Assembly: GCA_016182555.1 (NCBI GenBank) | Contig: JACPGJ010000003.1 | Location: 10,920-74,919 of the forward strand | DNA length: 64,000 nucleotides | Direction: 5' to 3' | Source of the DNA: Candidatus Kerfeldbacteria bacterium | GTDB taxonomy: Bacteria > Patescibacteriota > Patescibacteriia > UBA9570 > XYC2-FULL-38-9 | Shown here: in pieces, positions 30 to 61,338 of the stretch | How positions within the stretch are numbered: the first letter of the stretch is position 1 | Layout of the letters: each line of letters starts with the position of its first letter | Position numbers and translations under genes: made by a program | The notes under the pieces: generated by a model | Told to the model about the DNA's origin: nothing | Seen by the model: only the letters and a program-made list of their open reading frames with translations | Database searches by the model: none

Positions 30-1970
30 ATGAATCTTTCTTCAATCGAAATTTTATCCAAAATTTTCAAAAATCCCGAGGATGACCTCGCGCTTTTTAA
101 GAATTTGAATGTTTTGGAATTTTACGAGGACGAGAAAAACCGTGTGTACGTAAAAACACTCGAATACAATGGAAATGATAAAATTGTTCTTACAGAAAAA
201 AAGACAGCCCCCGAAGAAATCGTTCGGCAGTTATTCCTGTATGAACTTCTGCATGAATATCAATATCCAAAAGACAGGATAAAACTTGAGGTTGATGTAC
301 AGTTTGGTCGTGAAATTGGAAAAAAACGTGCGGACATTGTGGTTTATCGGGAAGACATGCAAACCCCATATTTGATGGTCGAAGTAAAAAAGCCTGATGT
401 AAAAGATGGGCTAGGACAATTAAAAAGTTATGCTAATGCAACAGGCGCACCAATCCTCATTCTCACTGATGGAAAACTACAAAATAACCTTTTAAGAACC
501 GATCCAAACTTATTTGAGGACTTGCCTGATCTTCCAAAGTTCAATGAAACGGTCGAAGATGTGCAAAAGAAAATTATTACTTTTGATAACCTTGAAGAGG
601 TTACAAATCTTAAACAGCTCATCCTTGATCTCGAAAATGCGGTATTGGCAAATGCTGGCGTTAATTCCTTTGAAGAAATTTTTAAACTCATTCAAACTAA
701 GCTTTATGATGAACTTGAAACTCCACGAAATCAAAATAGGCGTTTCCGTGTTATTGCAGGAGTAAGCAATAAAGAAAATTTGGATAATATCTCACGTCTT
801 TTTGCTGAATCTAAAAATCAATGGCGTGATGTTTTCAAAGATAAAGACGATATTGAAATACCAGCAAACGCTATCGTGCCAGCCGTATCGCTATTGCAAA
901 AATATCGACTTTTCGGGTCTAATCTTCAAATCATTGATGATGCTTTTGAGTACCTAATCAATCAAGATGCAAAAGGTGGGAAGGGGCAATATTTTACACC
1001 ACGCTTTGTGATTAACATGTGTGTAAAAATGCTTAATCCGAAAAAGAACGAAAATATTGTTGATACAGCTTCAGGAAGTTGCGGATTTTTGCTCCATGCA
1101 ATGCAACATGTTTGGCGAACTGAAATTACAAAAGAAAATTTCGGCAGCAGCTATGAAATGAAGCGCAAAGAATACGCGGATCAACATTTATTTGGTATCG
1201 ATTTTGACCCACGAAGCGTAAAAATCGGCAAAGCAATGATGCTTATTGCTGGCGACGGCAAAACCAATGTTACTTATGCAAATTCCTTAGACAGCGACCT
1301 TTGGGATGGAGAAGCAAAGGCAAGATTCAGTAAACTTTTACACCATTTCGACGATTTCGATTTAAACAGCAAAAATCGAGAAAAAATGACGGACTTTGAT
1401 TTTGACCTTATCATGACGAACCCGCCTTTTGCAGGTGAAGTAAAAGGGACATTGCTCAACAAATATGACCTTGGCTTTAAATTTGGTAAAGATTTTGAGC
1501 GCACAAATAAGCACCAAAACAAAATGACACGCGACATTCTGTTCATTGAGCGTAACCTAGGTTTTCTTCGCCCAGGTGGTCGCATGGCCATTGTTTTACC
1601 GCAAGGAGTATTCAACAATACCAATCAGGAGTACATCCGCCGCTATATTATGAAACAGGCACGGTTGTTGGCTGTCGTGGGTTTACATGGTAATAGTTTT
1701 AAGCCACACACAGGTACAAAAACGAGCGTACTATTTTTACAAAAATGGCGAACAGATAAAGAGCGGGAACAGGCTGGTAATTATCCAATTTTTATGGCTA
1801 CCAGCGAAAAGCCGGGAAAAAACAATAGCGGAGAATATGTATTCGCAATGGATGAAAATAATAACATCAGGAAAGATGAAAACGGGACGTATGTCTACGA
1901 TACAGATTTAGATGAAATAGCAGTCAAATTTATTGAGTTTGCAAAGAAATATAACTTTGATTTTGTTTGA
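30..1970 (+). CDS. hsdM: Type I restriction-modification N6-adenine DNA methyltransferase subunit (HsdM) with an N-terminal HsdR_N-type PD-(D/E)xK-like module
   Basis: 646-aa ORF with ATG at 30. The N-terminus carries a nuclease-fold-like stretch (KRADIVVYREDMQTPYLMVEVKKPD) typical of the HsdR_N module. The core has N6-adenine MTase motif IV NPPF (LIMTNPPFAGEV) and an AdoMet-binding-like segment (IVDTASGSCGFLLHA). Confidence 0.8.
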   Translation: MNLSSIEILSKIFKNPEDDLALFKNLNVLEFYEDEKNRVYVKTLEYNGNDKIVLTEKKTAPEEIVRQLFLYELLHEYQYPKDRIKLEVDVQFGREIGKKRADIVVYREDMQTPYLMVEVKKPDVKDGLGQLKSYANATGAPILILTDGKLQNNLLRTDPNLFEDLPDLPKFNETVEDVQKKIITFDNLEEVTNLKQLILDLENAVLANAGVNSFEEIFKLIQTKLYDELETPRNQNRRFRVIAGVSNKENLDNISRLFAESKNQWRDVFKDKDDIEIPANAIVPAVSLLQKYRLFGSNLQIIDDAFEYLINQDAKGGKGQYFTPRFVINMCVKMLNPKKNENIVDTASGSCGFLLHAMQHVWRTEITKENFGSSYEMKRKEYADQHLFGIDFDPRSVKIGKAMMLIAGDGKTNVTYANSLDSDLWDGEAKARFSKLLHHFDDFDLNSKNREKMTDFDFDLIMTNPPFAGEVKGTLLNKYDLGFKFGKDFERTNKHQNKMTRDILFIERNLGFLRPGGRMAIVLPQGVFNNTNQEYIRRYIMKQARLLAVVGLHGNSFKPHTGTKTSVLFLQKWRTDKEREQAGNYPIFMATSEKPGKNNSGEYVFAMDENNNIRKDENGTYVYDTDLDEIAVKFIEFAKKYNFDFV

Positions 1971-1971
1971 T

Positions 1972-3321
1972 ATGGCACAGATTTCTGAAATTACAGTTGA
2001 AGATTTATTGAAACATCAAAGAATTGATGCAGAATTTTTTCAACCTAAATTTTTAGATGCAGAAAGGAAAGTTGTTTCTTTTTCAAAAAAAATACAAATA
2101 AAAAAAGTCATCCACCCTAATGAGTTTAAGAGAGTATATCAAGAAAATGGGCTACAAATACTCCTTGCTCAGAATGTGAGAGATAATTGTTTAGATTTTA
2201 GCACTACTATGTTTGCAGATCCAGTGTTGAAAAATGACCTCAAACGAAACAAAGTAAATTACGATGATGTTCTCATGACAAGATCAGGTGCTAATTTTGG
2301 ACAAACGGCAGTATACAAATTTGAGAATGCTGAAATTTATGCTTGTGCGGATGTTCTCATTATTAGAAGCCAAGAAATAGCTGGTGGTTACCTTTCAACA
2401 TTTTTGAACTCTAAATATGGTAAAAGTTTAATAAACAGAGGCGTATATGGTGCAGCCCAACCACATATCGCACCATCATATTTATACTCTTTAGAAGTAC
2501 CTCAATTAAATAAAGAGTTTGAGATAAAAATAGATCAAATTACAAATGATGCTTTTTATAAACAAGAACAATCCACATCCCTCTACGCACAAGCGCAACA
2601 ACTCTTGCTTCAAGAACTTGGGCTGGATGATTTTACACCCGAATGGGTAACGGGGTACGAAATCGACCATGACAGTGTGCTTGGGGGCGCTCGTATGGAC
2701 GCGGAGTACTTTCAACCGAAGTATGAAATCGTAAAAAATAAAATTCGTGCAGTCGATCACGACACGCTAGGAAATTTAGTCAAACCGCTCAAAAAAGGTA
2801 TTGAAGTAGGTAGTGAGGCCTACGCAGAGGAAGGCATACCATTTTTACGTGTGTCAAATATTGAAAAATTCCGTATAGATAATTCAAGTGAACAATATAT
2901 TAGCAAAGAACTATACGAGGAATTGAAAGATAAGTTTTGCCCTCAAAAAAGTGAAATTTTGCTATCCAAAGACGGAACACCAGGCATTGCCTACTTTTTA
3001 ACAGAAGAAGTCAAAACGATAATTTCAGGTGGAATTGTTAGACTGAAATCGGTTGAAGTTGAACCGGAATATTTAACGCTTGTACTCAACTCTTTAATTG
3101 TTCAAACCCAAATAGAACAAGATGCAGGTGGTGCACTTATCAAACATTGGCGACCTGACCAGATCAAAACAACTCTCATTCCAATTTTGCCAAAAGAAGT
3201 GAGAGCAAAAATAGTGGCAATGGTTCAAGAAAGCTTTTCAGCACTTCACGAATCCCGCCAGCTTCTTAAACAGGCAAAGAGAGCGGTGGAGGAAATGATT
3301 GAAGCTAAAGCGTCATTTTGA
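1972..3321 (+). CDS. hsdS: Type I restriction-modification specificity subunit (HsdS)
   Basis: The ORF-track start at 1933 is a TTG. The first ATG (MAQISEI) lies 1 nt after the hsdM stop. There is an internal duplication of the conserved motif (RIDAEFFQPKFLD at the N-terminus and RMDAEYFQPKYEI mid-protein), i.e. two target-recognition halves. The size (about 450 aa) is typical of S subunits. Confidence 0.75.
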   Translation: MAQISEITVEDLLKHQRIDAEFFQPKFLDAERKVVSFSKKIQIKKVIHPNEFKRVYQENGLQILLAQNVRDNCLDFSTTMFADPVLKNDLKRNKVNYDDVLMTRSGANFGQTAVYKFENAEIYACADVLIIRSQEIAGGYLSTFLNSKYGKSLINRGVYGAAQPHIAPSYLYSLEVPQLNKEFEIKIDQITNDAFYKQEQSTSLYAQAQQLLLQELGLDDFTPEWVTGYEIDHDSVLGGARMDAEYFQPKYEIVKNKIRAVDHDTLGNLVKPLKKGIEVGSEAYAEEGIPFLRVSNIEKFRIDNSSEQYISKELYEELKDKFCPQKSEILLSKDGTPGIAYFLTEEVKTIISGGIVRLKSVEVEPEYLTLVLNSLIVQTQIEQDAGGALIKHWRPDQIKTTLIPILPKEVRAKIVAMVQESFSALHESRQLLKQAKRAVEEMIEAKASF

Positions 3322-3395
3322 AAGAATAAAGCGAAAAAATTTAGCTGCATTAAAAAAATTGCGTTTTACCGCATTATTCGGTACCATTTGCATAT

Positions 3396-3791
3396 ATGAA
3401 AATATACATTGGGCATGCTACATCGTTTGATTTTCACAATGAGCTATATACAATCATTCGTGACAGTGAAATACATCAGCAGCATGAAATTATTTTGCCT
3501 CACGAAAAAAGTAATGAACAATTTTCATCAAAAGTCTTATTTCAATCAGGATGCGATTTGATGATCGCTGAAGTGTCGTGGCCTTCAACGGGATTAGGAA
3601 TTGAGCTGGGTTGGGCAGATATGTACCGCATTCCCATTGTTTGTATTTATCGAAAAGGCTCAAAGGTATCTGGCGCATTAACAGCAGTCAGTCAATATTT
3701 TCTTGAGTACGAAAATCCATCAGATATTCCTCAGGTTGTATCCACGTATTTGGCAGAGCGTGCCCCCGTCTTTGGCGAGTTGTCTGACTAA
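3396..3791 (+). CDS. Nucleoside 2-deoxyribosyltransferase-like (NDT/LOG-fold) small protein
   Basis: 131 aa. Begins MKIYIGHA. The segment DLMIAEVSWPSTGLGIELGWADMYRIPIVCIY matches the NDT-family pattern, with an acidic residue followed by the G..E.G.A...P catalytic-Glu block. Confidence 0.5.
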   Translation: MKIYIGHATSFDFHNELYTIIRDSEIHQQHEIILPHEKSNEQFSSKVLFQSGCDLMIAEVSWPSTGLGIELGWADMYRIPIVCIYRKGSKVSGALTAVSQYFLEYENPSDIPQVVSTYLAERAPVFGELSD

Positions 3792-3917: not shown

Positions 3918-4361
3918 ATGGAGAGCAAAACCGTCCAAATAACACCTAAGCCAGGTGAGCAAAAATTTCAGTATGCTGGATTTTGGATAAGATTCTTAGC
4001 ATGTATTTTGGACTGGGTTGTTCTGGGAATTATAGGCTATATACTTTTTGGTAACGAAGTTACTCGTATAGAATCTGGTTCAATCAGTGTTCGTTATACT
4101 GGGTGGAAAAATATTATCCCTTTCTTATATGTACTATTATTTTGGCTATGGCTTTCCGCTACACCCGGTAAATTAATATGCCGTATTAAAATTATTGAAA
4201 TAGATGGAAGCAAGTTATCTTGGCAAAAAGCTTTGATACGAATGTTTTCATATATACCAAGTGCATTAGCGCTATTCATCGGTTTTATTTGGGCTGGATT
4301 TGATTCTAAAAAGCAAGCTTGGCATGATAAAATAGCGAAAACCTACGTGGTAAAAAAGTGA
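3918..4361 (+). CDS. RDD-family membrane protein
   Basis: 147 aa. N-terminal YAGFWIRFLACILDWVV followed by TM helices, and C-terminal WHDKIAKTYVV. These are the RDD-domain hallmarks. Confidence 0.6.
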   Translation: MESKTVQITPKPGEQKFQYAGFWIRFLACILDWVVLGIIGYILFGNEVTRIESGSISVRYTGWKNIIPFLYVLLFWLWLSATPGKLICRIKIIEIDGSKLSWQKALIRMFSYIPSALALFIGFIWAGFDSKKQAWHDKIAKTYVVKK

Positions 4362-4374
4362 TTTATCGGTAAAA

Positions 4375-4408
4375 GATGAGGAGGGGAATTGAGAGCTATT
4401 CAAAAGGT
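4375..4408. repeat. Partial (3'-half) copy of an intergenic structured repeat family (see 12312–12388 and 47072–47147)
   Basis: gatgaggaggggaattgagagctattcaaaaggt aligns with the 3' half of the 47-kb copy (atgaggtcgcgaggaattggctcaaaaggcc). It is located immediately 3' of the RDD gene. Confidence 0.4.
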
Positions 4409-4549
4409 AAAACCATTTTTTTCAGCGTTCTTTGAGTACTAGTGATTAGTACACACAGAAAGCTGGAGGTGGAGAGAGTACGCGATGTCGAAGCATGCGT
4501 CGTTTATATCGGCATGATCCCCGATTCTCTCCACCTCGTTGCTGTTGTC

Positions 4550-4831
4550 TCAGTTCTCTTCCTGCCGGAAGAGAACTGTCTCGCTCCTGTCGGGGTGGTA
4601 CGTGACCACCTCCAACATGGATAATTCCTCGCCCCCCCTGCTCTGGTCGAGCAGGGGGATGACGAGGTCACGGTGGTCGCCACACTTGTGGTACCACTCG
4701 TGCTCCTCAGGACCCTCCAACCAGACCGAGGTCACGGTCTGGTTGCTTTTCCAGGTCCGCACCTTGCCGGGGTGCAGAGACATGGTCTCGAAGCCCATGT
4801 CCCGCAGAGTAGAACTGAGAGAATTATTCAT
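4550..4831 (-). CDS. Hypothetical protein encoded inside a GC-rich island; the only protein-like frame in the island
   Basis: 93-aa ORF on the minus strand with a strong SD (GGAGG, 4-nt spacer, ATG). The residue composition is balanced, unlike the Ser/Trp/Arg-rich overlapping frames. I could not recognise a family. Confidence 0.35.
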   Translation of the reverse strand: MNNSLSSTLRDMGFETMSLHPGKVRTWKSNQTVTSVWLEGPEEHEWYHKCGDHRDLVIPLLDQSRGGEELSMLEVVTYHPDRSETVLFRQEEN

Positions 4832-5137
4832 GGCATCCTCCCTTTTTTATGCTAACTGGTATGCCATTACCCAGTCAGCGTTTTTGGATGTGCCGCATCC
4901 CACACTTGTGGAACACGGCGCGACGAGTAACGCAGCTGAGGCGCTTCTTTCATGAAAAAGTGAAAGTGAAATGCCCCGAATGCGTCACTCGTCAGGTATT
5001 TGTTTGAGACAACAGCTTTTCAATGTGCGTGTTCCGCTCAAACTACTTCTTTTCTACTGGTTCGGTTTTGCAGCGAACAGAACAAAATAGACTAGCATGG
5101 TTTTTACATTTTGTCAATACTTACTTCTGTCACGCCG

Positions 5138-5166
5138 TTGACTTTGTTCGGTATTCGTGATATAAA
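5138..5166 (+). promoter_or_regulatory. Sigma70-like promoter candidate upstream of the ABC ATPase gene
   Basis: TTGACT (5138–5143), 17-nt spacer, TATAAA (5161–5166), about 55 nt upstream of the ATG at 5222. Confidence 0.4.
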
Positions 5167-5221
5167 AAAAGTGAAAAAATGGAGCTAACTCCTCATTTTA
5201 ATATAAGCATTTTTGCATATC

Positions 5222-6463
5222 ATGCTCGAATCTGCAATACAGGTAAACAAGCTTTCTAAGGAATTTCGTATACCACATGAGCGCATTACCACCATGCGTG
5301 GTTTTTTTGTCAATATATTTAAGAAGAAACGGTATGAAGATTTTTTAGCGTTGGACAATGTTAGTTTTTCAGTACAAAAAGGAGAGTTCTTTGGAATTAT
5401 TGGAAAAAATGGTTCTGGGAAATCAACGTTATTAAAAATTTTAGCGGGTATTTATAGAGCAGATACCGGAAAGATAAAAATGAATGGTCGGATCTCTCCA
5501 TTTTTGGAATTAGGTATTGGTTTTAATCCAGAATTATCTGGCCGACAGAATATTTATTTAAATGGCGCAGTGTTAGGCATGACCAAGCAACAGATTGATA
5601 AAAAATTTGATGATATCGTCACGTTCTCTGAATTAGAAAGATTTATCGATCAGAAATTGAAAAATTATTCTTCGGGTATGCAAGTGCGATTAGCATTTTC
5701 CGTGGCTATCCATGCGAATCGAGATATTTTACTTATGGATGAAGTATTAGCGGTCGGGGACGCGAATTTTCAGCAAAAATGTTTAGGTGTATTTCGTCAC
5801 CTTCAACGACAAGGCAAAACGATTATTTTTGTTTCTCATGATATGGAAACCATGAAACAATTTGCCGACCGAGTATTAGTGCTACACCGCGGAAAGGTTG
5901 TGACCATCAGCGCTCCTGAACGTGCAGGATATGAATATAGTCAAATTTTAATGCGTGAACATAGCGCAATTCATCAAACAGCCATTGAGCGTGAAGCTCC
6001 TGATACCGTAGACCCTACACCACCAAAACAACAGAAGAAAAAAAATCGTATTGTTGGTATACAATTATTGAATCAACATGATACAGAAACGCAGGTCTTT
6101 GAGTATGGTGATGATATACGTATTCGTATAGAGTTCGATGTACAAGAACTCGTTCCAGAAATGTATGTCGGTCTTGGCATTATTGATAAGCAAACAGATG
6201 CATGGATTTGTGGAAATAATACCTATTTTGATCGATTTAATCACCACTGGAAAGTAGGGAAAAATACCGTGGTATTGAAGTTGCCAAATACCATATTTCA
6301 CAAAGGCGATTTTTATATATTGAGCAGTTTTTTTATTGGAGACCCAAAAGAGAATGCCATGATGGATTTTTATGACAGCCGTGAGCATAATTTTTATTTT
6401 CGTAGTTTTCCTCGAGATCGTCGCAATGGGTTGGTGTTAATGGATCATGAATGGAAACAATAA
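5222..6463 (+). CDS. Polysaccharide/teichoic-acid export ABC transporter ATP-binding protein (Wzt/TagH-like) with a C-terminal extension domain
   Basis: Walker A GIIGKNGSGKST, ABC signature YSSGMQVRLAF and Walker B ILLMDEVLAVGD are all present. A C-terminal extension of about 150 aa beyond the NBD resembles the Wzt substrate-binding extension. The ORF-track start 5213 is a TTG; ATG at 5222. Confidence 0.8.
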   Translation: MLESAIQVNKLSKEFRIPHERITTMRGFFVNIFKKKRYEDFLALDNVSFSVQKGEFFGIIGKNGSGKSTLLKILAGIYRADTGKIKMNGRISPFLELGIGFNPELSGRQNIYLNGAVLGMTKQQIDKKFDDIVTFSELERFIDQKLKNYSSGMQVRLAFSVAIHANRDILLMDEVLAVGDANFQQKCLGVFRHLQRQGKTIIFVSHDMETMKQFADRVLVLHRGKVVTISAPERAGYEYSQILMREHSAIHQTAIEREAPDTVDPTPPKQQKKKNRIVGIQLLNQHDTETQVFEYGDDIRIRIEFDVQELVPEMYVGLGIIDKQTDAWICGNNTYFDRFNHHWKVGKNTVVLKLPNTIFHKGDFYILSSFFIGDPKENAMMDFYDSREHNFYFRSFPRDRRNGLVLMDHEWKQ

Positions 6464-18930: not shown

Positions 18931-20250
18931 ATGAATAAGAAACATATCGGCATTATTGGGGGCGGATTAACAGGGATGACCGCGGCATTGGAACTGTTAA
19001 AAGATGGCCATGACATTACGATTATTGAAGGTGGATCGCAAACCGGCGGGCTTGCAGCCGGGTTTACATTTGAAGGTGCCAGCTTAGAACATGCTTACCA
19101 CCATGCCTTCAAAACCGATTATGATATTTTGGATTTGATTCAAGAATTAGAATTGAAGGACCAATTGAATTGGTTTGATAGCTCGATGGGTGTGTATTAC
19201 AACGGCCAATTATATCCCTTCCGCACTCCGATCGATTTACTGAAATTTCCGCCATTACGTTTTTGGAGTAAATTTCGTTTAGGCCTAACCGTATTGTATT
19301 TACAACACACAAAAAATTGGAAACGTTTTGAACACGTCACGGCAGCCGAATGGATGCGCAAGCATTGTGGTAAGCAAGCGTATGAAGTTATTTGGAAGCC
19401 GTTATTGCATGGCAAATTTCACCAATATGCTGACCAGGTATCTATGGCTTGGTTATGGGCCCGTATTCACATTCGCGCTAATTCAAAAGAAAAAGGGGAT
19501 TCGCGCGAGAAATTGGGGTATATGACGGGTGGGTTTCATACACTCATTCATGCATTGGAAGAGCGCTTACGCAAAGAAGGCGTGCAGATTCATTTGAATG
19601 AAAAAGTGCGCGGCGTGCGTACCGCAGAACAGGGCACGGTACAGGTAGAAACAGAACAGAAAACGTACACATTTGATGAAGTCATTTCGACGGTTTCTAC
19701 TCATCTTTTTTCACAAATGCTTGATTCAAAAGACACGACGTTAGCGAACTATAAAAAACAATTGGCGAGCGTGCAGTATTTAGGCGCAGCATTAGTCATT
19801 TTTTCTTCGGAACAATCGTTGAGCCCGTATTATTGGGTGAATGTGAATGATTCGGCTTCACCATTCTTAGCGTTCATTCAACATACGAATTTAGCACCGA
19901 CGAGTTGGTACAATAATCGGCAGGTGTATTATCTGGCGACATACGTTCCCCATGGTCATCGTTTTTTTACCACCGACGAAGCTGCACTGAAAGAAGAATT
20001 TTTTACCTATCTCAAAAAAATATTTCCTCAATTTTCCCCAGAACAAATACACAACACTCAGGTGATGCGTTTGCGGTATGCGCAACATATCGTGGATACG
20101 AACTACGCAGAAAAAATGCCGGCGCATGTTACGCCGATTCCGCACGTGTACCTTGCTAATTTTTCCCAAATTTTTCCAGAAGATCGCGGCATGAGTTATG
20201 CGATTCGCGAAGGTCGCAAGCAGGCGCAATTATTACGTGAACGATTATGA
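18931..20250 (+). CDS. FAD/NAD(P)-binding oxidoreductase (amine-oxidase / Glf-like Rossmann flavoenzyme family)
   Basis: N-terminal dinucleotide-binding GxGxxG (IGIIGGGLTGMTAALELL) followed by a conserved acidic residue (IIEGG). 439 aa. Sits in an operon between GtrA and GT-C genes. Confidence 0.6.
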   Translation: MNKKHIGIIGGGLTGMTAALELLKDGHDITIIEGGSQTGGLAAGFTFEGASLEHAYHHAFKTDYDILDLIQELELKDQLNWFDSSMGVYYNGQLYPFRTPIDLLKFPPLRFWSKFRLGLTVLYLQHTKNWKRFEHVTAAEWMRKHCGKQAYEVIWKPLLHGKFHQYADQVSMAWLWARIHIRANSKEKGDSREKLGYMTGGFHTLIHALEERLRKEGVQIHLNEKVRGVRTAEQGTVQVETEQKTYTFDEVISTVSTHLFSQMLDSKDTTLANYKKQLASVQYLGAALVIFSSEQSLSPYYWVNVNDSASPFLAFIQHTNLAPTSWYNNRQVYYLATYVPHGHRFFTTDEAALKEEFFTYLKKIFPQFSPEQIHNTQVMRLRYAQHIVDTNYAEKMPAHVTPIPHVYLANFSQIFPEDRGMSYAIREGRKQAQLLRERL

Positions 20251-21887
20251 ATTTTCGTAAGCGATTACAACAACAATCTGTTTATTGGTATGGAGCGATG
20301 GCAGTGATGGTGCTATTTGCCGTTTTTCAATTGGCCACTATCAATCAGTACGGAGTGAGTTGGGACGAAAAAGATGAGCATCTGCTCGCAAACGCGTTGA
20401 TGCAATATATAGAAACGGGGAATGTGAGTGAAATTACGTTAACCGGATATCCTGATTTACGACATTATGGTTCCTCAACGCCATTTTTGATGATGTTGTG
20501 TTCTGTGGTTTCGCGTCAATTTCTCGGGTTGAATGTGGCGAGTGCGAATCATCTGTATATTGTGTTGTTGGGTGTCGTGACTCTCGTGGCAACATATTTG
20601 TGGAGCCGGCGTGTATTTGGAAAAAGAGTCGCATTATGGAGTATTCTTTTTTTGGCGTTATTTCCGCAATTTATTGCTCATGCTCAGTATAACCCTAAAG
20701 ATATTCCCCAAACAGCATATATTGCACTGACGTATTATTTTTTCTATCGGTGCTACCATGATCGAAAATTCATTTTTGCACTACTGGCTGGCGTGGTTTA
20801 TGGTATTGCCTTGTCTACCGTGGTTTCAGTCTTGATTGCGCTACCTATATTTTTTGGCAGCTACGTGCTTTTTATTCTTTTTCAAGACCCCGTTTATCGT
20901 CGTGCTGATTGGAAGCAGTACCTTGGAAAAGACGCCGTATTATTTTTGGTATTTGCTGCCACTGCAGCGCTTACGATGTATGCCACCTGGCCACTCATGT
21001 GGACAGAACCGACTATTTTTATGGACGCCGTGCGCCTGTTTCAACACCATGATTGGAATGGCACGGTGTTGTACTTAGGGACTGTCTCTTATGCCGCTGA
21101 GTTGCCCTGGCATTATGCGCCGTTGTATCTCTTTATTGTTACGCCGCTGTCTACAATCATTTTTTTTGTGTTTGGGCTAGTGTATGCCGGCAAGCAGGTC
21201 TTCAAGCGGGTGCATCTTTCTGCAGCTCACCAAGAAATGACGGGCACAGTGACTGTTCATTTAACCGCGGTATTTCGCTATGGGTCTTTACTATTGTGGG
21301 CGTTGATACCATTGGCGGTGTTTATGTTACCTGGTGCAGTGAATTATGATGGCATTCGACATTTTTTTATGGCTATTCCACCACTCATGATTCTTGCTGG
21401 TATTGGATTACATGCGGTTATTGAGCGTCTCGCCAGTTTGTCTGTGCCGTACAAACGCGTGCTACCTATTGCCATTATTTGCGTGTTTTTATTTTCAATT
21501 GGTGCACAAATTGTACAAATTCATCCGTATGAAGGATCGTATATGAATGAAATTGTTCGTACCGTGATCCCTAAGCACGTTGAAGATTTTTTTGAAGTAG
21601 AGTATTGGGGACCATCCTACCGCGAAGGAGTTAAGTGGCTGAATGCCAATGCTTCACAGAAATCTCGTGTTTGCATCCCGTTTGCGCCACATCTTATTGA
21701 TGCCTACCATACACGCAAAGATCTGTCTTTTGGTTGTGACCAGCCATATAGTTATGTGATGTATTTTACGCGTGGAGGAAAGCGTAATACGCCACAGGAA
21801 TTAACAGATCATGTTGATCAAGCACGACTCGTGTATACCATTTCACGCCAAGGTGCAGATTATTTATATATTTATGAAACGAAGTAA
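20247..21887 (+). CDS. GT-C-fold membrane glycosyltransferase (ArnT/PMT-like), paralog 1
   Basis: 546 aa, polytopic. First periplasmic loop carries the Asp-Glu motif (VSWDEKDE). About half the residues are identical to the downstream gene over FPQFIAHAQYNPKDIPQ...NGTVLYLG. Confidence 0.65.
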   Translation: MNFRKRLQQQSVYWYGAMAVMVLFAVFQLATINQYGVSWDEKDEHLLANALMQYIETGNVSEITLTGYPDLRHYGSSTPFLMMLCSVVSRQFLGLNVASANHLYIVLLGVVTLVATYLWSRRVFGKRVALWSILFLALFPQFIAHAQYNPKDIPQTAYIALTYYFFYRCYHDRKFIFALLAGVVYGIALSTVVSVLIALPIFFGSYVLFILFQDPVYRRADWKQYLGKDAVLFLVFAATAALTMYATWPLMWTEPTIFMDAVRLFQHHDWNGTVLYLGTVSYAAELPWHYAPLYLFIVTPLSTIIFFVFGLVYAGKQVFKRVHLSAAHQEMTGTVTVHLTAVFRYGSLLLWALIPLAVFMLPGAVNYDGIRHFFMAIPPLMILAGIGLHAVIERLASLSVPYKRVLPIAIICVFLFSIGAQIVQIHPYEGSYMNEIVRTVIPKHVEDFFEVEYWGPSYREGVKWLNANASQKSRVCIPFAPHLIDAYHTRKDLSFGCDQPYSYVMYFTRGGKRNTPQELTDHVDQARLVYTISRQGADYLYIYETK

Positions 21888-23457
21888 GTTGTTGAATTTT
21901 TCCACAGCTGCTTATTTGCTGATTGTACTTTTTTTTATCGTGAATGTGGTGACGTTGAAGCAGTATGGCATGACATACGATGAACGGAATTATGCCATGA
22001 TCGGCCAGATGAATGTGGAATATTTTCATACGCTGGATCGTTCACAAATTCACCCGTTAGATGATCTGATGATTTATTATGGACCAGCGTATCACATTGT
22101 TCAACAAGTGTTTGGTTTATTTGCGCAGGCGGTGTTTCATTTAGGGTATATTGATGCCACACATCTTTTTTTGGTATGTACTTCTACCGCCATGTTATTG
22201 GTGGTTTTTTTCTTTGCTCGGTCATTATTCCGCCCATCGGTTGGTTTGTGTACGGTTGTCTTGCTCATGCTGTTTCCACACTTTATTGCCCACGCCCATT
22301 ATAACCCGAAAGATTTACCCGAAGCCGAGATGGTGACCATTAGTTTGTATCTTTTTTATCGGCTCTATAGCACAAAGCGATATGTGTACGCTATTTTAGC
22401 CGGTGCGGTTTACGGTTTTGGTTTAGCCACAGTCGTGAGCATTCTTTTAGCCGTGCCAATATTTGTTGCGAGTTATCTATCTTTTTTGGTTTTTCAAGAA
22501 CGAATATATCAACGCAAAGATTGGAGGGTATATTTATTAAAAGATGTATTATTATTTTTTGTATTTGCTATCGTGCTCATGTTCACAATGGTTTTGAGTT
22601 GGCCACTGTTATGGAGCGATCCACACATATTTGTAGAATCTATTCGCTTGTTTCGTCACCATAGTTGGAATGGGCAGGTTTTATATTTTGGCCAAACCTA
22701 TCTTGGTTCTGAAATTCCGTGGCATTATGTGCTGCTATCTCTATTTATGGCTACTCCACTGTTACCATTTTGCTTTTTTATTGTTGGTCTGGTTCGGTCT
22801 GGAAAACAGATACTCCATCGGAAGGAAATGTTTCCATATGCGTTCATACTGTGTTGGGCCGCTCTGCCATTGATCATATTTATGTTGCCTGGTGCTGTGA
22901 ATTATGATGGAATACGACATTTTTTTATGGCTATTCCACCATTGATGATTCTCGCTGGTGTGGGGATGGATGCGGTGATACGCGGGTTAAAAAATATATT
23001 ACACACTCGACCCGTGCTTCTTCCAACTATTTTTTGTATAATCGTCGTCGGTTGGTTGGTTAATGAATCACGCCAAGTACACCCGTATGAAGGTGCCTAT
23101 TTTAATGAATTGGTGCGTCTCATCATTCCTGCACATATCGAAACTGTGTTTGAAGTGGAATATTGGGGCGCATCTTACCGAGAAGGTGTTGACTGGTTGA
23201 ATACACATGCCGCACCAAATGCGGTGGTCTGTGTGCCTGATGGTATGCATATGGTTGAAATGTATCCACGCCGTCTAGATATTCTCTTGCATTGTGGTGA
23301 TGACTCTACGTATGTCATGTATTATACGCGTGGTGGTCCAAGAAAAATTCCTGCGCCTATGTTATTGAACCAACAATCAACGCAGCGTGTCTACACTATC
23401 AGCCGGCAACATTCGGATTATCTGTATATTGTTTCTATTTCATCAGTATCGCAGTAA
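21874..23457 (+). CDS. GT-C-fold membrane glycosyltransferase (ArnT/PMT-like), tandem paralog 2
   Basis: The start MKRSKLLNF at 21874 overlaps the upstream stop by 14 nt; the ORF-track 5' extension from 21811 is rejected. FPHFIAHAHYNPKDLPE...NGQVLYFG is collinear with paralog 1. The loop has a DE motif (MTYDERN). Confidence 0.65.
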   Translation: MKRSKLLNFSTAAYLLIVLFFIVNVVTLKQYGMTYDERNYAMIGQMNVEYFHTLDRSQIHPLDDLMIYYGPAYHIVQQVFGLFAQAVFHLGYIDATHLFLVCTSTAMLLVVFFFARSLFRPSVGLCTVVLLMLFPHFIAHAHYNPKDLPEAEMVTISLYLFYRLYSTKRYVYAILAGAVYGFGLATVVSILLAVPIFVASYLSFLVFQERIYQRKDWRVYLLKDVLLFFVFAIVLMFTMVLSWPLLWSDPHIFVESIRLFRHHSWNGQVLYFGQTYLGSEIPWHYVLLSLFMATPLLPFCFFIVGLVRSGKQILHRKEMFPYAFILCWAALPLIIFMLPGAVNYDGIRHFFMAIPPLMILAGVGMDAVIRGLKNILHTRPVLLPTIFCIIVVGWLVNESRQVHPYEGAYFNELVRLIIPAHIETVFEVEYWGASYREGVDWLNTHAAPNAVVCVPDGMHMVEMYPRRLDILLHCGDDSTYVMYYTRGGPRKIPAPMLLNQQSTQRVYTISRQHSDYLYIVSISSVSQ

Positions 23458-43495: not shown

Positions 43496-44807
43496 TCCCA
43501 GCGTCACACGTTCATCTCGTCGTTTGTTTTTGTGTACCGCGACAGTTATTATATTTTTATTTGGCATCAGCGTTGGGTTTGTACTTAATAATTCCCCGAA
43601 GTTTGCAACTAATCATTATATTCGAACAATTCAAGCTTCTTTTCATGCACCAGTAACGAATTCATCTTTTGAACATCAAGCAAATTTAGATCTCTTTTGG
43701 AAAGTGTGGGATGAAATTCATACCCAATATGTGGATCAACCAGTCGATGATTCGACATTGATCTATAGTGCCATTTCCGGTATGGTCGCGGGAGTTGGTG
43801 ATCAATATTCGGTTTTTTTCAATCCGGAACAATCGAAAGCGTTTTTAAGTGAGGTATACGGTAGCTTTGAAGGTATTGGCGCAGAGATTGGTATAAAAGA
43901 TGATCATCTCACTATTATTGCACCGCTTCCGGGTTCTCCCGCTTCACAGGCTGGGTTGCTTGCTGGAGATACTGTACTGGCTATTAATGGCACCAATGCG
44001 TCGAGTTTTTCATTGAACGATGCTGTAGAAACTATTCGAGGTGAAAAAGGAACCACGGTGACGCTCACCATTCAACGTGTTGATACGCCTGAACCGTTTG
44101 ATGTTATCGTGACACGTGATACGATTCATGTTGAAAGCGTGAAATGGGAAATGGTGAATGAAGGTGATCATCGTATTGCGCATATCACCATTACGAATTT
44201 TGCGGAAGATACGGCAACAAAATTTCAAGAAGCGATTAATAATATGTTGATTCAACAACCGGATGCGTTGATCTTGGATTTACGAAATAATCCGGGTGGA
44301 TTTTTAGACGGTGCAGTGAATATTGCCTCCAAATTTATTCCAGAAGGACAAGCGGTGGTGTATGAACAGTTTGGGAATGGTGCTACACAAGCCTATAAGG
44401 CAAGTGGATTATCTCCGTTACAGAATCTGCCGACGATTATTCTCCAAAATGAAGGATCAGCATCAGCATCAGAAATTCTTGCCGGCGCCTTAGAAGACTA
44501 TGGCAAGGCAAAAATTATTGGGGTGACATCGTTTGGTAAAGGTACGGTGCAAGATTTAGAAACATTCGATGATGATTCATCATTAAAGTTGACAATCGCT
44601 CGTTGGTTGACTCCAACGCAGCATTTGATCAATAACATTGGTATTTACCCAGATTATTGGGTAGAACGGACTGCCGATGATGTCGCAGCTGAGCGAGACC
44701 CGCAGTTAGATGCTGCTCTGCTCTATATTAAAGATCAAGCCGCGTTTACTGCACAATATCAGCCTTATGTGCCACCAGCGCAAGAAGAATTAACGAAGCA
44801 GAAATAA
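43434..44807 (+). CDS. ctpA: Carboxyl-terminal processing protease (S41 family, PDZ-containing)
   Basis: PDZ region (GDTVLAINGTNAS). S41 catalytic block LDLRNNPGGFLDGAVNIASKF. The TM start is uncertain; the ATG at 43434 overlaps murA by 62 nt, and an in-frame TTG downstream is an alternative. Confidence 0.8.
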   Translation: MNELKNDYNTSVPISNELPNNPSVTRSSRRLFLCTATVIIFLFGISVGFVLNNSPKFATNHYIRTIQASFHAPVTNSSFEHQANLDLFWKVWDEIHTQYVDQPVDDSTLIYSAISGMVAGVGDQYSVFFNPEQSKAFLSEVYGSFEGIGAEIGIKDDHLTIIAPLPGSPASQAGLLAGDTVLAINGTNASSFSLNDAVETIRGEKGTTVTLTIQRVDTPEPFDVIVTRDTIHVESVKWEMVNEGDHRIAHITITNFAEDTATKFQEAINNMLIQQPDALILDLRNNPGGFLDGAVNIASKFIPEGQAVVYEQFGNGATQAYKASGLSPLQNLPTIILQNEGSASASEILAGALEDYGKAKIIGVTSFGKGTVQDLETFDDDSSLKLTIARWLTPTQHLINNIGIYPDYWVERTADDVAAERDPQLDAALLYIKDQAAFTAQYQPYVPPAQEELTKQK

Positions 44808-44825
44808 TTTTTATTACACATTTTT

Positions 44826-45245
44826 ATGAAAGTGATTATCAAAAAAACAGGCGAAGTAAAGAATGTTTCTGATGGATATGCGCGTAATTTTCTTTTTCCC
44901 CATGGTTTAGCTGTTGCCGCAACAGCTAAAGAGATCGCCAACGCTCAGAAACAGCAGCAACAGAAAAAAATGTCTTTGCAACAGCAGCAAGTGATTTGGC
45001 AAGAATTAGCGAAAACATTACCGGCCACAACGATCACTATTCATGCCCGTGCCAACACGGACGGAACGCTCTTTGGCAGTTTACAAAAATCTGTTATACT
45101 CAAAGCCATAGTGGCAGCCGGTATTTCCATGGAAGAATCATGGTTACTTTTGCCTGAACCCATCAAAAAAACTGGGAAGCAAACTATCGCCGTTCACTTC
45201 CCGAACGGAGCAGAGGCCTCATTTATTCTTGACGTCATATCATAA
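44826..45245 (+). CDS. rplI: 50S ribosomal protein L9
   Basis: [43 protein letters not shown] matches the L9 N-domain. 139 aa. Confidence 0.75.
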
Positions 45246-61265: not shown

Positions 61266-61338
61266 AGCCGACGTCGAGAATCGAACTCGAGACCTGCGCG
61301 TTACGAGTGCGCTGCTCTACCGGCTGAGCTACGTCGGC
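61266..61338 (-). tRNA. tRNA-Thr (anticodon CGT)
   Basis: Reverse complement GCCGACG-TA-GCTC-AGCCGGTA-GAGC-A-GCGCA-CTCGTAA-CGCGC-AGGTC-TCGAG-TTCGATT-CTCGA-CGTCGGC-T. All four stems pair, with A31·C39 as the only mismatch. T-loop TTCGATT, U33, anticodon CGU. The 3' CCA is not encoded. Confidence 0.85.

Follow-up and report, generated by a model that had tools for sequence, protein, structure and literature searches.

A compositionally foreign, hairpin-dense islet with one small orphan gene in a glycan locus of a Candidatus Kerfeldbacteria bacterium

We analyzed a stretch of 64,000 nucleotides (hereafter, the window) from contig JACPGJ010000003.1 of a Candidatus Kerfeldbacteria genome. Inside the window, an 860-bp gap between an RDD-family membrane protein gene and wzt, the gene for the ATPase of a glycan ATP-binding cassette (ABC) exporter, contains a GC-rich island of about 0.6 kb with a single gene-like open reading frame (ORF) of 93 codons on the minus strand. 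The island is real, reproducibly assembled and compositionally foreign. The explanation that we prefer, tentatively and at a strength somewhat short of probable, is that a small-gene cassette of foreign origin was recently acquired and inserted at a variable junction of the glycan locus, with a transcript that is dense in hairpins and locks itself. The more specific reading, that the cassette is a self-locked selfish gene, is possible but doubtful. An identical protein in NCBI shows that the source of the ORF is a Candidatus Kerfeldbacteria metagenome-assembled genome, on a contig of 86 kb.

The GC content rises from 0.30-0.36 at positions 4300-4449 to 0.52-0.68 at 4450-4800; from there until about 5075 it remains at 0.42-0.60. 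The segment 4511-4810 (GC 0.603) has the top 300-nt value in the window (mean 0.415, standard deviation (sd) 0.042, z=4.5), and the runners-up, 0.54 and then 0.52, both lie in housekeeping genes, those for S-adenosylhomocysteine (AdoHcy) hydrolase and CTP synthase. The original prediction, made from the letters of the window, had described an abrupt shift in composition relative to the flanks and proposed a sliding-window analysis of GC and codon usage; the shift is indeed beyond local variation, and the codon choice of the ORF is far outside the host range. The proposed extent of the GC-rich, inverted-repeat island, 4440-4960, is too short on its right side, where both the GC-rich region (about 4455-5075) and the structured region (4423-5016) pass 4960. 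A partial copy of an intergenic repeat that had been placed at 4375-4408 was not reproduced, and only AAAAAAGTGA, a short motif rich in A, was found repeatedly, at 4352, 4954 and 5165. A Logan contig of 14.4 kb from run SRR12113422 matches the window at 100% over 12,349 bases, both island junctions included.

The ORF at 4550-4831, which had been singled out earlier as the only protein-like frame of the island, is the sole frame with a gene-like composition of its codon positions and carries true coding periodicity. The GC contents of its first, second and third codon positions (GC1/2/3) are 0.55/0.39/0.81, compared with 0.52/0.36/0.37 in the host (periodicity p=4e-8). G is the most frequent base at the first position and GC1 exceeds GC2, as real genes show. 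The leader of the ORF has no periodicity (p=0.65), and the antisense frame of 138 aa, which has its third positions in common with the ORF, shows GC1 below GC2 and is not gene-like. The synonymous-codon score of the ORF is -0.31, against a mean of 0.12 for long host ORFs (sd 0.03, minimum 0.06). GC3 is 0.85 at positions paired in the predicted fold and 0.73 at unpaired positions; because the unpaired positions are high as well, the high GC3 is not merely a by-product of the stems. The product is acidic (isoelectric point 5.1, grand average of hydropathicity -0.79), and its best 19-residue Kyte-Doolittle mean of 0.24 indicates no membrane segment.

The start region of the ORF runs in the order in-frame stop, A-run, GGGAGG, 5 nt, ATG and eight AT-rich codons. 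The canonical GGAGG start is therefore present as predicted, with a spacer of 5 nt between GGAGG (4841-4837) and ATG (4831-4829) instead of the four that had been counted. In the 20 nt before the first ATG, GGAGG occurs in none of the 51 long host ORFs, and any AGGA or GGAG in two; window-wide, GGAGG with an alternative TTG start is possible in two other long host ORFs (47652 and 58178). About half of the Parcubacteria are without the anti-Shine-Dalgarno motif (PMC9297842), and the near-absence of Shine-Dalgarno (SD) sites in the host genes fits this published loss. Because host genes almost never carry an SD site, the start signal of the island belongs to another kind of organism. Deviating composition and codon usage, the marks of a horizontally acquired islet, are thus found in the island together with a host-alien SD site, as the original prediction of horizontally acquired DNA would have it, and we consider a foreign origin of the island probable. 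In a host apparently without SD initiation, the ORF is probably silent or has at best a low level of translation.

The island also has an exceptional fold. With a perfect hairpin defined by a stem of at least 9 bp and a loop of 3 to 12 nt, five distinct perfect hairpins occur in the whole window, three of them within 4551-4745, inside the ORF. The two inverted repeats reported before are present, the 12-bp repeat at 4466-4477/4526-4537, which extends to 21 nt at 81% complementarity, and the 10-bp hairpin with a 5-nt loop at 4634-4658. Three further ones, all perfect, were found: 12 bp with a 4-nt loop at 4551-4578, 11 bp with a 6-nt loop at 4718-4745, and a long-range 12-bp repeat at 4541-4552/5005-5016. 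The predicted folding energy of the region 4440-5020 is -264 kcal/mol for the plus strand and -288 kcal/mol for the minus strand; compared with dinucleotide shuffles, these values correspond to z=-9.3 and z=-12.0, respectively, and DNA folding parameters gave z=-9.1. For the ORF, permuting the synonymous codons gave z=-7.9, resampling weighted by GC3 gave z=-8.0, and shuffling the order of the codons gave z=-10.5. The non-coding flanks are structured likewise, the leader (4832-5016) with z=-7.2 and the 3' part (4423-4549) with z=-6.4. In a control of 25 windows of 580 nt from three loci of 61-69% GC, the minimum z was -4.8; because these windows average z=-1.2, the structure of the island is not a general trait of GC-rich DNA. 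That the island is a structured nucleic acid, one of the earlier proposals, is strongly supported statistically. As a member of a known RNA family it was not recovered: Rfam covariance models, run on both the region and the window, gave no island match.

About 13 near-perfect helices are predicted, with pair probabilities of 0.92-1.0 (Table 1). The long-range closing helix pairs 5016-5006 with 4551-4541 at a predicted probability of 0.98, and the TGA stop codon stands exactly where two perfect helices meet. The loop of hairpin H3 is a 7-nt perfect complement of AUGCCAU (4836-4830), a segment that covers the spacer together with the first two start-codon bases, and in the modeled fold a contact between this loop and the start codon may mask the AUG. 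Two 12-mers recur in the island. One, CCACACTTGTGG at 4680-4691 and 4900-4911, forms the tip of two different hairpins. The other, CGAGGTCACGGT, is found at 4663-4674 and 4727-4738 in two different reading frames, and because the frames differ, this repeat is one at the level of the nucleic acid and not of the protein.

Table 1. Features of the island and its surroundings (window positions)
Feature	Position	Strand	Remarks
hsdM	30-1970		type I restriction-modification
hsdS	1933-3321		type I restriction-modification
RDD-family membrane protein gene	3918..4361	+	left neighbor
Outermost structured unit	4423..4465		16-bp hairpin, AT-richer left flank
Open frame beyond TGA	4443..4549	-	35 codons in the ORF frame to TAG 4440-4442; possible former C-terminus
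GC-rich island	4455..5075		GC profile, peak 0.60 at 4511-4810
Branched 3' hairpin H11	4466..4537		perfect 12-bp base stem, the first inverted repeat of the original prediction
3' arm of perfect 12-bp long-range helix	4541..4552		holds TGA stop; pair probability 0.98
93-aa orphan ORF, hypothetical protein HYV32_00740	4550..4831	-	ORF list, NCBI annotation
Hairpin H10	4551..4578		perfect 12 bp, 4-nt loop; ends at stop codon
Hairpin H9 in ORF	4585..4621		15 bp
Hairpin H8 in ORF	4627..4667		perfect 10 bp at 4634-4658 and 7-bp outer stem
Hairpin H7 in ORF	4669..4702		tip CCACAAGUGUGG
Hairpin H6 in ORF	4710..4758		perfect 11 bp at 4718-4745 and 6-bp outer stem
Hairpin H4 in ORF	4777..4803		9 bp
Hairpin sequestering the ribosome-binding site	4817..4842	-	AUG left in loop; predicted
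Shine-Dalgarno-type GGGAGG	4837..4842	-	5 nt before ATG; predicted paired (P ~1.0) with codons 3-5 (4817-4824)
Hairpin H3	4851..4879		loop AUGGCAU (4867-4861)
Hairpin H2	4890..4921		tip CCACAAGUGUGG, 12-mer common to H7
Leader hairpin H1, long	4922..4993		13-bp perfect base stem and two upper stems
5' arm of perfect 12-bp long-range helix	5005..5016		helix encloses leader and whole ORF
wzt, ABC ATPase with Wzt_C domain	5222..6463	+	glycan ABC exporter ATPase; intact, no adjacent wzm

According to the explanation that we prefer, the donor would be a GC-richer organism using SD starts, and the cassette would comprise one self-contained small gene. We infer that the minus strand is the one transcribed. 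On this strand the 5' arm (5016-5005) would come first, followed by a three-hairpin leader of about 185 nt, GGGAGG-N5-ATG, the 93-codon ORF threading seven hairpins, and the branched 3' hairpin, with the TGA opening the 3' arm of the closing helix. Fold-back pairing would then hold translation off until the RNA is processed or refolded. A paired ribosome-binding site, a start-codon loop complementary to an upstream loop and a 12-bp closing helix would together make up the architecture of a tightly self-repressed gene, one of a selfish or toxin-like nature perhaps. In its present host, the gene may already be decaying.

Several results weigh against this explanation. No donor or homologue was found, although relatives would be expected in data from the same aquifer if the transfer was recent. 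The ORF product is without alanine, where 4.9 residues are expected, and AlphaFold on this single sequence gave a model of low confidence (predicted local distance difference test (pLDDT) 48). The 35 codons that follow the TGA in the frame of the ORF show the same pattern as the ORF (GC1/2/3 0.56/0.31/0.66, p=0.009), so that the ORF may once have had 130 codons, and this coding-like signal suggests a truncated rather than a working gene. No toxin, antitoxin, transposase or defense domain was found in the ORF product by profile searches; because the product is hydrophilic and has none of these domains, it is the architecture of the RNA that carries the analogy with selfish genes. The promoter and terminator scan of the island gave no convincing promoter or intrinsic terminator for a minus-strand transcript. 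The stems are nearly all Watson-Crick symmetric, and the counts of G-U pairs on the two strands (15 vs 13) are compatible with either strand, and with RNA as well as single-stranded DNA. Finally, the island is one sequence and hence offers no measure of covariation or conservation.

The context of the TGA deserves a separate remark. The branched hairpin begins 13 nt downstream of it, and GG opens the first inner loop of this hairpin, at a distance of about 30 nt from the UGA. The in-frame UGA could be a nonsense mutation in a gene of 130 codons or, speculatively, a selenocysteine codon with a hairpin like a selenocysteine insertion sequence.

Searches for relatives were made at the level of protein, DNA and RNA. 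In a word-indexed search of 5.8 billion clustered proteins, the 93-aa ORF product matched itself alone and the antisense 138-aa ORF product had no match. A full phmmer search of 1.84 billion representatives returned the ORF itself and one weak match (E=5e-5), P0002, a protein of 690 aa with four repeats of about 95 aa and no Pfam domain, encoded on a metagenome contig of 46.5% GC (L018, 4001-6073). The similarity covers 48 residues (VRTWKS...CG..RDL) at 35-38% identity and is repeated four times in P0002; it is probably inflated by the repeats and spurious. Scans with back-translated patterns, together with tblastn, of genome, viral and Joint Genome Institute (JGI) metagenome contigs gave no relative, and the island had no match by blastn or tblastn in plasmid and phage collections. 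Pfam, NCBIfam and PADLOC had no match for the ORF product, and the best match in PHROGs had E=0.18. A PDB sequence search gave an annexin fragment only, at E=0.01, and Foldseek of the PDB with the pLDDT-48 model gave nothing. Among DNA motifs, the two CCACAAGTGTGG tips at their native spacing were absent from viral contigs, and their six matches in genomes were all tandem-repeat arrays without further similarity. The pair of terminal repeats was absent from viral contigs too and had two metagenome matches without further similarity. Rfam found a tRNA at 61266-61338 and nothing else in the whole window, and in 4200-5300, even at E<=10, it gave chance-level scores of 10-19 bits, against thresholds of 47-93.

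Known kinds of elements were considered and rejected. An integron cassette was discarded for want of attC core sites, R'' (RYYYAAC) or R' (GTTRRRY), on either strand of 4350-5230, and an IS200-like element for want of a Y1 transposase domain. A retron or other RNA linked to a reverse transcriptase was set aside because no reverse-transcriptase domain occurs in the nearest genes (hsdM, hsdS, the 131-aa gene, RDD, wzt, DUF4915 and the glycosyltransferases). There are no repeated GGA loops, as a CsrB-type sponge RNA would have. The hairpins are all different, and the two 12-mers recur once each in the 64-kb window, inside the island only, unlike palindromic repeats of the REP or RPE type, which are present in many copies.

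The place of the island bears on its origin. The permease gene wzm (an ABC-2 permease of 257-259 aa) lies directly upstream of wzt in four related lineages. No wzm was found anywhere in the window, and tblastn detected no remnant of it in the gap. The adjacent wzm is missing in three other lineages too, with different small genes in its place. In the first (L026, 1-4000), wzm lies 3.4 kb from wzt, with genes for a 23S_rRNA_IVP protein, a large glycosyltransferase and a PemK toxin between them, the PemK gene being divergent and directly upstream of wzt. In the second (L025), AT-rich orphans stand upstream of wzt. The third (L023/L024, 36.5% GC) has a segment, 4601-4900, at 0.48-0.60 GC with a minus-strand orphan ORF of 75 aa and four cysteines (4637-4864), which is divergent, directly upstream of a wzt without an adjacent wzm, and preceded by AAGGAGGA-N6-ATG, a site that the neighboring host genes are without. 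This segment has no sequence kinship to the island, and its fold is unremarkable (z=-1.5 and -2.1). These results show that small orphan or selfish genes have landed at the wzm-wzt junction repeatedly, in several lineages of the Candidate Phyla Radiation (CPR). The island is one such case, and an extreme one in structure.

The original prediction had gone further and suggested that the island possibly marks the event that removed wzm. The absence of wzm from the window and its place beside wzt in four lineages agree with this. However, because the junction is unstable in general, with different genes in the three other lineages that lack an adjacent wzm, there is no tying the island to the loss itself, and the link between the two is circumstantial. 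The nearest Wzt proteins are only 58-61% identical, which means that a close relative is lacking, and the loci of these proteins are not collinear upstream.

Of the other explanations, the one that deserves most attention is an inert relic, which we consider unlikely: a fragment from a GC-rich organism would have entered by illegitimate recombination, its gene, once longer, would have been cut by the nonsense TGA, and the hairpins would have no role in the host. The coding periodicity for 35 codons past the TGA in a frame open to the island edge is what such a relic should show, and its expression would be doubtful in a host without SD use. The gene caller called no gene at the ORF on the Logan contig, and the lack of alanine and the poor fold model point the same way. 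On the other hand, the full gene start is kept, from the upstream in-frame stop and the A-rich tract to GGAGG-N5-ATG and the AT-rich first codons, and the stop codon falls exactly where the two perfect helices join. Such structure is not general in GC-rich DNA, and its presence in coding and non-coding parts alike suggests a selected unit. A gene for a structured RNA of about 580-600 nt, either non-coding or with a dual function, with an incidental or secondary ORF, is rather less likely still. Such genes classically stand out in AT-rich genomes as intergenic DNA that is GC-rich and strongly folded; z is -9 to -12 overall, each third of the island is structured independently, and a perfect long-range helix closes it. 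The CCACAAGUGUGG tip in two hairpins and the second 12-mer in two frames are motifs at the nucleic-acid level. Yet Rfam gave no match even at E<=10, no homologue is available for covariation, the scan yielded neither promoter nor terminator, and the strong periodicity, GC1>GC2 and the textbook start are unexpected in a non-coding RNA.

The high GC3 could also have arisen in place, if the ORF were native to the host and evolving fast, with selection for a stable fold of the mRNA pushing its synonymous sites towards G+C. GC1 and GC2 are near the host values and GC3 alone deviates, the structure lies 8 sd beyond synonymous shuffles, and a GC-rich small ORF occupies the analogous place in a second CPR genome. 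We find a native gene very improbable nonetheless: GC3 is high at the unpaired positions too, the non-coding leader and the 3' hairpin are likewise GC-rich, the SD site is alien to host genes, and the ORF in the second genome (L023/L024) has neither a related sequence nor an unusual degree of structure. Terminal inverted repeats as in insertion sequences are present at 4541-4552 and 5005-5016, so the island might be bounded by them as a miniature inverted-repeat transposable element (MITE) or a palindrome-associated relative. We estimate that a perfect 12-bp inverted repeat with 452 nt between its arms has a chance expectation of about 0.03; the stop codon lies within the repeat, as in many insertion sequences, and the site is prone to insertion. 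Such an element is scarcely plausible all the same, as no target-site duplication is seen (the flanks read ...CTCGTT, element, TTTTCA...), GC-rich structured DNA runs 90-120 nt past the left repeat, and there is no transposase. The miniature mobile element of the original prediction is likewise not supported, with a single copy in the 64-kb window, no second one in any collection, and a repeat pattern that is absent from viral contigs and has two unrelated chance matches in metagenomes. An assembly or binning artefact, with reads of a GC-rich organism chimerically joined into the CPR contig, would fit the abrupt break, the unique sequence and the metagenome-assembled source. Because the independently assembled Logan contig is 100% identical, across both junctions, it is unlikely that the island is such an artefact. 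For an insert of 0.6 kb, two chimeric joins would be required; the two assemblies come from the same reads, so that read-level chimeras are formally possible, and we give this explanation next to no credence.

The cassette that we favor resembles several known systems in part. Like the orphan-gene islets of O-antigen and other glycan loci, the island shows an abrupt break, foreign codons and a foreign start, no homologues and a variable junction. Unlike them, it has no mobility gene, tRNA or direct repeats, and its hairpin density is far beyond that of the usual islets. The mRNAs of type I toxins (hok, aapA1) and of the IS10 and IS200 transposases are locked by fold-back. With these the island shares, in its predicted fold, a leader that is long and structured, a ribosome-binding site in a hairpin and a long-distance 5'-3' helix around the coding region, and locking of the type I toxin kind is predicted in silico from pairing probabilities of about 1.0 for the SD and 0.98 for the closing helix. 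In contrast to the short hydrophobic peptides or transposases of those systems, the product here is an acidic soluble protein of 93 aa, whereas type I toxins have fewer than 60 aa and are hydrophobic or membrane proteins, and the promoter scan revealed no antisense RNA gene or promoter in the island. In RNAIII, the hld ORF is embedded in the fold. RNAIII, OLE, ROOL and GOLLD are like the island in a size of about 0.6 kb, about 13 hairpins and GC richness in an AT-rich genome; unlike them, the island has no covariance match, occurs once, and consists for half of its length of an ORF with strong periodicity. Closest in position are the L023/L024 orphan and the L026 PemK gene, which like the island are divergent and directly upstream of a wzt without adjacent wzm. 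The L023/L024 orphan further shares GC enrichment and a strong SD in an SD-less host, but differs in having no sequence similarity and an unremarkable fold, and PemK, unlike the ORF product, belongs to a known toxin family. It is also conceivable, though improbable, that the island is the sole representative sampled so far of a new class of coding RNA elements, about 0.6 kb long and saturated with hairpins, with a functional fold (about 13 helices, a perfect long-range closing stem, shared CCACAAGUGUGG tips), that move between GC-rich bacteria and CPR episymbionts into glycan loci. The fold of such a class would be that of, e.g., a self-locking selfish gene, a dual-function RNA or an intermediate in the transfer of single-stranded DNA.

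To the right of the island, the original prediction had placed the promoter of wzt. A promoter-like TTGACT (5138-5143) and TATAAA (5161-5166) at a distance of 17 nt are plausible by eye, and the scan did not call them; it found no plus-strand promoter-like site in the island either. The wzt gene is without a ribosome-binding site, with TTGACT-17-TGATATAAA about 55 nt upstream, and judged from these letters it appears to have gained its own promoter. DUF4915 and glycosyltransferase genes follow wzt. Left of the island, a defense-type block (30-3791) consists of hsdM, to which HSDR_N_2 and Eco57I-type domains are fused, hsdS, and, between hsdS and the RDD gene, a gene for a 131-aa protein that weakly resembles nucleoside 2-deoxyribosyltransferase; no hsdR was seen. 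A LexA-like repressor gene just outside the window (L001, 147-767) also belongs to the block. The block as a whole may have been inserted between wzm and wzt. Elsewhere in the window, two adjacent glycosyltransferase genes of the PMT_2 family (20247-23457) are paralogues with DNA segments of 71-77% identity at a spacing of 1558 nt, and the one long perfect hairpin of the window outside the island, of 11 bp (TTTAGCTGTTG-CCG-CAACAGCTAAA, 44906-44930), just past a gene ending at 44807, is probably a terminator.

The island is a curiosity and a one-off, with one small gene that lacks known relatives, and as one sequence only, it permits no generalization yet. Nonetheless, a hairpin density 8 sd beyond what protein sequence and codon usage impose is rare for any bacterial gene, and our survey shows that small orphan and selfish genes come to land at the wzm-wzt junction time and again across CPR lineages. 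If it is true that the cassette came from a GC-rich, SD-using organism, it would mean that an ultra-small CPR bacterium has recently received genes from elsewhere, with its host as a possible source, and the landing site would be the very locus that builds the cell-surface glycan.

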